From IMG/VR virus record IMGVR_UViG_2663763471_000001: DNA of 23,800 bases; one strand, written 5' to 3'. The position numbers and the translations under genes are program-made. Origin of the DNA: a virus. Its lineage: Duplodnaviria; Heunggongvirae; Uroviricota; Caudoviricetes. Below the pieces are notes generated by a model. The model worked only from the letters and a program-made list of their open reading frames with translations. It had not been told where the DNA came from and ran no database searches. This document shows positions 6,426 through 8,363 of the stretch, one piece after another (position 1 is the first letter of the stretch; every line of letters begins with the position of its first letter).

Positions 6426-8363
6426 GTGACTCTTAAACGGGCCTGTTCCCTGCTGACGGTGAAATCCTTCAGTGAGGATGAACGGGTGATCACCGGGATT
6501 GCGTCAACGCCTTCTCCGGATCGGGATGGTGACATCCTGGAGCCGGAGGGCGCGGAGTTTGGCAGTGCGATCCCGTTTCTCTGGCAGCATGACCATTCCC
6601 GCCCGGTGGGGCAGTGTACGGTGCGCCGGGTCAGCGAAGGGCTGGAAATCACGGCAACACTGGTGAAGCCCGTACCGGATATGCCGTCGCAACTGGCTGC
6701 CCGGCTGGATGAGGTCTGGGCGGCCATTAAGACCGGGCTGGTCAGGGGGCTGTCCGTGGGCTTCCGTCCCCATGAATACACCTTTCTGGACGGAGGCGGA
6801 CTGCATTTTCTGCGCTGGGAACTGATGGAGGTGTCTGCCGTCACCGTGCCCGCGAATGCGGAATGCACCATCCGGACCATTAAATCTTACGACCGCCCGT
6901 TTTCTGCCGCGTCCGGCAACCGGAAACCGGTGGTGAAAATCGCATCTTCTGCCGGCGCTGCGGCACAGTCAACAACCGTTTTTCATAAGGAAAAGACCAT
7001 AATGAATATTGGCGAACAGATTAAAAGTTTTGAAAACAAGCGTGCAGCGCTGGCAGCCTCCCTTGAGGAGGTCATGACCAAAGCCGCAGAGGAAGGGCGC
7101 ACGCTGGATGTGGAGGAGGAAGAGCATTACGACAACACCGCAGCGGAAATCCGTCAGGTGGATGCGCACCTGAAGCGCCTGCGTGAACTGGAAGCCGGTA
7201 AGGCCGCCACGGCGCAGCCGGTGAAACAGGCCGGTAACGGGAATGTGGCCGCGGTGGCTTCTGCGCCGGTGATCCGTGTGGAGCAGAAACTGGATAAGGG
7301 GATTGGCTTCGCCCGCTTTGCCAAATCGCTGGCTGCGGCTAAAGGCGTCCGATCTGAAGCCCTGGAAGTGGCCCGTCGTCAGTATCCGGATGACAGTCGT
7401 CTGCATCATGTCCTGAAATCGGCAGTGGGCGCGGGGACCACCACGGATCCGCAGTGGGCAGGCAGCCTGTCTGAATATCAGGAATACGCACAGGACTTTA
7501 TTGATTACCTGCGTCCGCAGACCATTATCGGGCGATTTGGTCAGGGCGGGATCCCTGCACTTCGTCAGGTGCCATTCAATATCCGTGTGCACGCCCAGGT
7601 GTCCGGCGGTGCTGCCGGCTGGGTGGGTGAGGGTAAGGCAAAACCCCTGACGAAGTTTGATTTTGAATCCATCACCTTCAGTCATGCGAAGGTGTCGGCC
7701 ATTGCGGTACTGACGGAAGAATTGATCCGTTTTTCCAGTCCGGCTGCTGATGCACTGGTCCGTAATGCGCTGGCGGAAGCGGTGGTGGCGCGTCTGGATA
7801 CAGACTTTGTGGACCCGAAAAAAGCCGCAGTGGCAGATGTCTCCCCGGCGTCCATCACCCATGATGTGAAGGGCACGGCATCAACCGGTAACCCGGATGC
7901 GGATGCAGAGGCTGCGTTTGGACAGTTTGTGGCAGCAAACCTGCAGCCCACCGGTGCGGTCTGGCTGATGTCCAGCACCAATGCCCTGGCACTGTCCATG
8001 CGTAAAAATGCGCTGGGTCAGAAGGAATACCCGGACATGACCCTGCTGGGTGGCTCCTTCCAGGGGCTGCCGGTGATTGTCTCCCAGTACGTGGGTGACC
8101 AGCTGGTGCTGGTGAATGCCCCGGATATTTATCTGGCGGATGACGGCGGCGTGGCAGTGGATATGTCCCGCGAGGCATCACTGGAAATGCAGTCTGAGCC
8201 GACCGGCGACAGTACCACGCCGTCCCCGGTGGAGCTGGTTTCCATGTTCCAGACAGGCAGCGTGGCCATCCGTGCGGAGCGCTGGATCAACTGGCGTCGT
8301 CGCCGTACTGCGGCGGTGGCGGTGATCACCGGAGTGAACTACGGCAGTGCGTCCGGCGGCTGA
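6426..8363 (+). CDS. Fused prohead protease (HK97 gp4/S78-like), scaffold-like delta domain and HK97-fold major capsid protein
   Basis: GTG start with SD caggagg. The N-terminal ~170 aa look like an HK97-family prohead protease. A charged coiled-coil segment follows (MNIGEQIKSFENKRAALAASLEEV…). The C-terminal part has major capsid protein character (…GWVGEGKAKP…, …RAERWINW…). In-frame ATG with SD at 7002. Confidence 0.85.
   Translation: MTLKRACSLLTVKSFSEDERVITGIASTPSPDRDGDILEPEGAEFGSAIPFLWQHDHSRPVGQCTVRRVSEGLEITATLVKPVPDMPSQLAARLDEVWAAIKTGLVRGLSVGFRPHEYTFLDGGGLHFLRWELMEVSAVTVPANAECTIRTIKSYDRPFSAASGNRKPVVKIASSAGAAAQSTTVFHKEKTIMNIGEQIKSFENKRAALAASLEEVMTKAAEEGRTLDVEEEEHYDNTAAEIRQVDAHLKRLRELEAGKAATAQPVKQAGNGNVAAVASAPVIRVEQKLDKGIGFARFAKSLAAAKGVRSEALEVARRQYPDDSRLHHVLKSAVGAGTTTDPQWAGSLSEYQEYAQDFIDYLRPQTIIGRFGQGGIPALRQVPFNIRVHAQVSGGAAGWVGEGKAKPLTKFDFESITFSHAKVSAIAVLTEELIRFSSPAADALVRNALAEAVVARLDTDFVDPKKAAVADVSPASITHDVKGTASTGNPDADAEAAFGQFVAANLQPTGAVWLMSSTNALALSMRKNALGQKEYPDMTLLGGSFQGLPVIVSQYVGDQLVLVNAPDIYLADDGGVAVDMSREASLEMQSEPTGDSTTPSPVELVSMFQTGSVAIRAERWINWRRRRTAAVAVITGVNYGSASGG

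Follow-up and report, generated by a model that had tools for sequence, protein, structure and literature searches.

How the right, sub-stoichiometric number of protease molecules enters the procapsid is a live question in HK97-like assembly. The known routes are a targeting peptide, as in HK97, and fusion of the protease to a free scaffold whose gene is nested within the fusion, as in lambda, Mu and the herpesviruses. In lambda C/Nu3, Mu I/Z and T4 gene 21, a protease-bearing chain and a nested shorter chain have a common assembly domain, and herpesvirus UL26/UL26.5 consists of a protease-scaffold gene and a nested scaffold. Here, we analyse a gene located among the late head and tail genes of a lambdoid E. 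coli prophage, in which the nested product would be the capsid protein itself. The gene is an open reading frame (ORF) on the plus strand at positions 6426..8363 of a 23,800-nucleotide (nt) stretch of caudoviricete DNA (IMG/VR record IMGVR_UViG_2663763471_000001), which is analysed as a whole and referred to as the window. Its long product, of 645 amino acids (aa), features a protease, a linker, a delta/scaffold segment and a capsid protein. We consider it likely that this is a two-start gene, that both chains co-assemble and that the ratio of long to short chains sets the dose of protease.

The likeness to lambda C/Nu3 lies in the use of one frame with two in-frame starts, the long product being the protease and the short, C-terminally coincident product the scaffolding protein, with the dose of protease tied to translation. 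In contrast, the lambda C protease is ClpP/S49-like, Nu3 is a free scaffold, and a gene of its own encodes the capsid protein, gpE. In the fusion gene, the short product would be a capsid protein with a delta domain, so that the protease would be tethered to capsid subunits. The fusion protein has no match to a ClpP/S49 family in Pfam or NCBIfam, and its protease is of the S78 family. The analogy to C/Nu3 drawn in a preliminary description of the locus is apt as a mechanism, but the fusion gene is not homologous to C/Nu3. UL26/UL26.5 is similar in that a long protease chain and an abundant short chain with a common C-terminal assembly domain co-assemble, followed by self-release of the protease inside the procapsid. 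The herpesvirus short product, however, is made from its own promoter and transcript rather than from an internal ribosome binding site, and the major capsid protein is the product of a separate gene.

Judged by homology, the parts of the fusion protein group with HK97 gp4 and gp5. The two systems have the same protease family, the same capsid fold and an N-terminal helical delta domain that serves as scaffold, with no separate scaffold gene; in the window, the protease and capsid parts have no ORF between them. In HK97, in contrast, gp4 and gp5 are separate genes, 2 nt apart and located downstream of the portal gene. The identity of the capsid parts is 11–15% in Foldseek alignments, and the region putatively removed at maturation measures approximately 150 aa here and 102 in HK97. 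Burkholderia phage vB_SBP39 (PV072743) is 39% identical over 96% of the protein and has the order terS-terL-protease-capsid-small ORF-portal, with a capsid Shine-Dalgarno (SD) sequence, TAAGGA, similar to that of the window. Unlike the window, it carries protease and capsid genes in different frames with a stop between them, and its portal (444 aa) lacks the extension found in E. coli.

The in-frame ATG at 7002 with an upstream AAGGA, highlighted in the preliminary description, is present and corresponds to codon 193; the product had been put at approximately 454 aa and measures 453. The nested in-frame ORF (7002..8363, plus strand) would give a short product made of the delta/scaffold segment and the capsid protein. 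The internal initiation region (6972..7034, plus strand) is AT-rich and weakly structured, and contains AAGGA at 6987-6991 and the ATG at 7002-7004. The ATG does mark the start of the scaffold-like segment, as had been proposed, since in an AlphaFold2 (AF2) model M193 follows a disordered linker and lies two residues before the first helix of the delta hairpin. The GC content of the 63 nt around ATG 7002 is 0.30, compared with approximately 0.60 for the gene, and is the lowest among the 53 in-frame ATG, GTG and TTG codons. The minimum free energy (MFE) of this 63-nt segment, -6.6 kcal/mol, is likewise the weakest of the 53; the value is -12.0 kcal/mol at the annotated 5′ start and ranges from -15 to -29 kcal/mol at most other start-like codons. 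E. coli variants with differing flanking codons retain both CATAAGGAAAAG and ATG 7002.

Two other candidate sources of a short product were considered and rejected. ATG 7074 (M217) is preceded by GAGGAGG, but the spacing is 2 nt, the MFE is -21.4, and the first delta helix would be truncated. An internal promoter giving a short transcript in the manner of UL26.5 was searched for in the region 6200-8700, where no sigma-70-like site was found, other promoter types being possible.

Comparison with related head modules, recommended in the preliminary description, supports the internal start: a start codon and an SD sequence are present in all 71 non-redundant loci, RNA structure is low, and split capsid genes begin at the same Met. 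At the protein level, 130 of 145 fused representatives of 50%-identity clusters feature a Met located 1–7 residues, mostly 2–3, before a conserved I-A-E-Q-I motif. The background frequency of Met is 2.4%, and the linker around the conserved residue is variable and has many indels. Most of the 15 representatives without Met carry Val at this position. Where Val occurs, it is encoded by GTG in 13/13 instances (11 representatives with available DNA and two viral contigs), and for ten of these the chance expectation, calculated from the Val codon usage of each gene, is 1.5e-5. The single Leu case examined is encoded by TTG. A position restricted to Met, GTG-encoded Val and TTG-encoded Leu has the character of an initiation codon rather than that of a structural residue. 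The Met conservation test was based on the representative search and a viral scan, both with search patterns located elsewhere in the protein; the viral scan gave 80 contigs through peptide patterns that do not include the internal Met, and many of the 71 loci come from it.

An SD core is found within 20 nt of the candidate start in all 71 loci, and in 65 of them its 3′ end lies 6–9 nt from the start codon. Distant relatives have the consensus GGAGG at -13 to -9; its duplex energies, -10 to -12 kcal/mol, rank in the top 0.3–1% of all positions of the same gene. The local dip in GC content is also a feature of the relatives (median percentile within each gene, 0.006). E. coli reads the SD sequence as AAG-GAA (Lys-Glu), other Enterobacterales read it as AAA-GGA (Lys-Gly) and distant relatives as GAG-GGC (Glu-Gly), differing codon phases that point to selection acting on the nucleotides. 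As a result, a conserved dipeptide, Glu-Gly or Lys-Gly, marks it in the proteins 3–5 residues before the Met, in contexts such as PKPEEGxxM, KPQEGxxM and KKGNxxM (relatives L066-L107 and representatives P0121-P0270). On this reading of the alignments, the dipeptide would be the protein-level footprint of an RNA signal.

Capsid genes that are not fused point to the same residue. Met1 of the vB_SBP39 capsid protein aligns with M193 (MTIAEKIK vs MNIGEQIK), and five stand-alone capsid representatives, as well as one split locus (L099), begin at the Met equivalent to M193. The fused state is accompanied by an intact initiation region from 100% down to 38% identity. These comparisons strongly support ATG 7002 as a functional internal start.

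The 5′ start is equally well defined. The 645-aa protease-scaffold-capsid ORF of the preliminary description is real: it begins with GTG at 6426 and has an SD sequence, AGGAGG (6415..6420, plus strand), located 5 nt 5′ of the GTG, with a duplex energy of -10.3 kcal/mol, and the product carries Pfam and NCBIfam domains. The same AGGAGG precedes the 5′ start in Enterobacterales relatives, mostly with an ATG start codon; the E. coli lineage has GTG where relatives have ATG. Many distant relatives combine a strong internal SD (-10 to -12 kcal/mol) with a weaker one at the 5′ start. A long product made in minority would fit both the stronger internal SD of these relatives and the GTG start of E. 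coli.

From these data, it is most likely that both the 645-aa and the 453-aa products are made and co-assembled. Initiation at GTG 6426 would give the 645-aa chain, formed by the protease, a flexible linker, the delta/scaffold hairpin and an HK97-fold capsid protein. Initiation at ATG 7002 would give a 453-aa chain in which delta domain and body are colinear with an entire HK97-type precursor of the capsid protein. The short product may be expected to be assembly-competent on its own because TIGR01554, a model of gp5 length, aligns from its position 3 to aa 204. The whole assembly-competent part would be common to the two chains, which could accordingly co-assemble in the procapsid shell. Long chains would bring protease domains inside the shell on a tether of approximately 45 residues without a targeting peptide, and the protease copy number of each capsid would depend on how strong the two initiation sites are relative to each other, with no need for a separate gene. 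Once the shell is assembled, the protease would cut off the linker, the delta domain and its own domain, probably along with all residues up to approximately aa 345-350; the mature capsid protein that remains would measure approximately 300 aa. We infer the production of both chains, their ratio, their co-assembly and the cleavage sites.

The architecture given in the preliminary description, with a protease, a coiled-coil delta/scaffold segment and an HK97-fold capsid domain, agrees with the results of Pfam, NCBIfam, hhalign against gp4, AF2 and Foldseek. The HK97-type (S78) prohead serine protease domain spans aa 1-146 (6426..6863, plus strand), with the His55 codon at 6588-6590 and the Ser110 codon at 6753-6755. 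Pfam PF04586 (Peptidase_S78) matches aa 48-152 with 34.7 bits (cut-off 21), and NCBIfam TIGR01543 matches aa 48-154 with 46.5 bits, under its equivalog cut-off of 59. A profile built from 78 homologs aligns with HK97 gp4 in hhalign with a probability of 97% (E 1.2e-10); H55 and S110 line up with the gp4 motifs FFNHK and MSVGF, and these catalytic residues are unchanged across the 78 homologs. Searching solved structures with the sequence of the protease domain gave no significant match. In the AF2 model of the 645-aa protein, the mean predicted local distance difference test (pLDDT) score is 85, and the protease domain is well folded.

The protease is followed by a flexible linker, aa 147-192 (6864..7001, plus strand), which differs in sequence and length among relatives. 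The linker is predicted to be disordered at aa 147-189, as evidenced by pLDDT values below 50 at aa 147-151 and 156-189, and is marked by indels and low conservation both in a first alignment (A1) and in that of 150 representatives. A P-G-[AV]-S-G motif located approximately 15 aa before the internal Met is common in distant relatives. The delta/scaffold-like helical hairpin spans aa 195-262 (7008..7211, plus strand) and consists of two AF2 helices (195-223 and 229-262; pLDDT 94–97). Downstream, AF2 predicts a second linker (aa 263-292) and three short helices (aa 293-331), encoded at 7212..7448 on the plus strand; this stretch is probably either removed at maturation or part of the N-arm.

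The HK97-fold capsid body spans aa 342-645 (7449..8360, plus strand). Pfam PF05065 (Phage_capsid) matches aa 386-635 with 53.1 bits (cut-off 24.2), and TIGR01554 matches aa 204-584 with 78 bits (cut-off 27.5), model positions 3-355 being aligned. The best Foldseek matches of the body, the pLDDT of which is mostly above 85, are the capsid proteins of Bxb1, D3 and HK97 (E 8e-15 to 1e-10). The family profile aligns weakly with HK97 gp5 in hhalign (E 0.062), gp5 residue 117 corresponding approximately to aa 363; for this reason, the assignment of fold and family rests on Pfam, TIGRFAM and Foldseek. A counterpart of the HK97 cleavage site might lie near aa 345-350, a position that we infer from the weak gp5 alignment. 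Sequence and model together support the view that the 645-aa protein is a predicted S78 prohead protease joined to an HK97-fold capsid protein with a delta domain.

The protease-capsid fusion architecture as such is already known. PHROGs and NCBIfam include families named as protease/capsid fusions (phrog_617, phrog_4523 and NF045541), and the same architecture has been recorded in actinophage clusters and in thaumarchaeal proviruses. Like the gene analysed here, these fusions hold protease, scaffold-like segment and capsid protein in one ORF. The fusion protein matches phrog_617 end to end (E 1e-261). With NF045541 it has the architecture in common, but the score of 54 bits, compared with a cut-off of 525, places it in another family. 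Fused homologs of 644–648 aa with 73–78% identity are found in Salmonella, Enterobacter, Klebsiella, Serratia, Kosakonia, Pantoea and other genera, and the fused state extends to Proteus, Mesorhizobium and Halopseudomonas. Among the best 150 matches to representatives of 50%-identity clusters, 144 are fused, mostly approximately 630–680 aa long and 38–57% identical to the query. In E. coli, the fusion ORF is carried, in identical or nearly identical form, by 1255 of 5426 complete genomes, about a quarter, often in multiple copies, and is uninterrupted at a coverage of at least 80% in 1246 complete genomes. The 2.4 kb around the gene are 97–100% identical to Shiga toxin (Stx) phages, including BP-4795, 2851, YYZ-2008 and 1717 (93 phage records). 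Depositors have called the product “putative major head protein/prohead protease” since BP-4795, while PGAP names it “phage major capsid protein”.

The preliminary description had left room for the fusion being an artefact, in which a sequencing frameshift, or the decay of a prophage pseudogene, joins two genes. Close relatives with separate genes do exist, and as few as 2 nt separate gp4 from gp5 in HK97. However, an ORF that runs uninterrupted through 1246 complete E. coli genomes and inducible Stx phages, that is conserved from Salmonella, Enterobacter and Serratia to Proteus, Mesorhizobium and Halopseudomonas, and the architecture of which has families in PHROGs and NCBIfam, rules out this origin. 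It is also unlikely, though less drastically so, that the 645-aa protein is the sole functional product, with the protease cut off every subunit after assembly and the ATG, the SD and the AT-rich patch being the relic of a gene boundary or an SD-like pause site. This possibility would be in keeping with an uninterrupted ORF preceded by a strong 5′ SD, with split relatives, which show that the boundary was formerly intergenic, and with the weak internal SD of Enterobacterales. Yet a relic would be expected to decay, whereas start, SD and low structure persist in 71/71 fused loci down to 38% identity amid a changing linker, and a lost Met is replaced by GTG or TTG only; a pause site, for its part, needs neither a start codon nor correct spacing.

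Both products might also be made with the long one riding as a passenger on short subunits through delta-delta contacts, much like a free HK97 protease, which binds delta domains, and the shell consisting solely of the short product. The evidence for two starts serves this arrangement as well as it serves co-assembly, the linker is long and disordered in the AF2 model, and the HK97 protease is reportedly targeted through contacts with the capsid interior. On the other hand, the long product holds an identical, complete capsid body, and no sequence feature bars its entry into capsomers. Sequence data cannot separate the two arrangements; we regard a shell free of long chains as quite improbable. 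A free protease could finally be produced by recoding near the junction, beside or instead of internal initiation, for instance by a -1 slip on the T5 run at 6979-6983 followed by termination at the out-of-frame TAA at 6986. ATG 7002 is indeed closely preceded by this run and by TAA codons that are out of frame, at 6986 and 7000. The T run is, however, not conserved among E. coli variants (L042 and L043 read CCTCTTTTC), GC-rich relatives have neither a slippery run nor nearby out-of-frame stops, and chance alone would place TAA codons in a patch so rich in AT. Recoding at this run was thus rejected for lack of a conserved signal in either group, and we hold a contribution of this kind to be very improbable.

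Co-assembly of two chains from one gene remains the preferred explanation, and several points weigh against it. In E. coli and other Enterobacterales, the internal SD is just AAGGA, with a duplex energy of -5.6 to -6.2 kcal/mol (percentile within the gene approximately 0.1–0.18), and the 10-nt spacing between AAGGA and ATG 7002 in E. coli is rather long. The internal site could be blocked by ribosomes already translating from the 5′ start, and a capsid with a protease on every subunit may be physically conceivable. The literature search found neither genetic nor protein-level nor ribosome-profiling evidence that these phages make either product, and it found no virion proteomics of them. Moreover, 18 genome-scan loci were ascertained with a pattern that contains the Met, and were used for the SD and composition analyses only; as the sequences are phylogenetically related, they represent fewer independent events than the counts suggest.

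More tentatively, the explanation may be extended to at least approximately 145 clusters (50% identity) in Proteobacteria. In these, the capsid protein would be the internal product of a two-start gene, the protease would be present on a minority of subunits, its copy number would be set purely by translation, and the SD would be imprinted in the protein as Glu-Gly or Lys-Gly. Although the fusion is often mentioned in the literature, our search found no paper reporting that such a protease-capsid fusion has an internal start, an earlier mention being possible. Nested starts are known from lambda C/Nu3; the fusion gene would differ from that and the other known systems in having the capsid protein as its nested product. 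The fusion gene suggests a third solution to the entry of protease into the procapsid, in which the enzyme is tethered to some of the capsid subunits and its dose is tuned by two ribosome binding sites. The gene is found in many Shiga-toxin phages, and annotation of two products bears on proteomics, phage engineering and capsid-based detection. An ATG, GTG or TTG codon conserved within a variable linker, combined with a properly spaced SD and a dip in RNA structure, provides a signature with which nested genes may be searched for.

Upstream of the fusion gene lie terS (4141-4704) and terL (4701..6362, plus strand), the conserved neighbour encoding the large terminase (Pfam TerL_ATPase and TerL_nuclease). 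Downstream, a conserved small ORF (8408-8629; 73 aa, phrog_829) separates capsid and portal, and the conserved portal gene (8575..10920, plus strand; Pfam Phage_portal at aa 54-382), which is fused in frame to the next gene, is followed by head-tail connector genes and a lambda-like tail module. The capsid gene does precede the portal gene in the window, the reverse of the HK97 and lambda order noted in the preliminary description; the HK97 order is terL-portal-protease-capsid. The order terL, fusion gene, (small ORF), portal holds in 67 of 73 non-redundant loci, and the other six loci end before the position of the portal. This indicates that the reversed order is a stable trait of the family, not a local rearrangement.

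Terminator-like hairpins flank the fusion gene, as they flank the gp4-gp5 pair of HK97, in which putative terminators are annotated at matching places, before gp4 and after gp5. The upstream hairpin (6387..6412, plus strand), located between terL and the fusion gene, has a 7-pair stem at 6387-6404 followed by TTTTATTTTC, which includes a T run. The downstream one (8380..8397, plus strand), read from the sequence, is a GC-rich 8-bp hairpin, GGGAGGCG-TG-CGCCTCCC, directly 3′ of the capsid stop codon. It is preceded by a TAAGGAGGA motif at 8370-8378, and the next ATG is at 8408. The small ORF that starts there shares 55 nt with the 5′ end of the annotated portal ORF. ORFs of this kind occupy the equivalent position in relatives, including vB_SBP39 and metagenomic loci (L023-L025), and homologs were detected by tblastn in 24 loci.

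The 781-aa portal ORF consists of a portal of approximately 455 aa joined in frame to the next gene, which corresponds to ORF59 of BP-4795; the portals of nearly all relatives measure 450–480 aa. The junction differs by one nucleotide, as the window has a run of six G at 9920-9925 where BP-4795 and some contigs have five. In the five-G form, a TGA overlapping the ATG of the gene downstream ends the portal; the exact six-G form is found in 747 E. coli records, and the five-G form with the same flanks in 29. The former start codon of the gene after the portal is still in frame (..EKMTEREL..). The portal fusion may be a second fusion with a retained internal start, a homopolymer error or an instance of phase variation.

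The portal extension (approximately 10150-10920; aa ~525-781) contains several repeats of approximately 45 aa, in which IPVPRDGRDYDPDVLQKAVNDAV.. alternates with IPQPADGKSLTPDDVRPMLEQMVKEAV..; Tandem Repeats Finder did not report them at the DNA level. Eleven N at 10221-10231 fall within the repeats, and the copy number in the window is for this reason uncertain; ORF59 of BP-4795 has more repeat units. The terminal domain of the extension has a weak match to CBM_5_12, a carbohydrate-binding domain, which is odd for a portal C terminus. Portal C termini normally face the capsid interior. At the other end of the region, upstream of terS, a 121-aa ORF (3485-3850) matches in position and size ORF53 of BP-4795, which is annotated as an HNH endonuclease; this candidate would point to HNH-assisted cos packaging.

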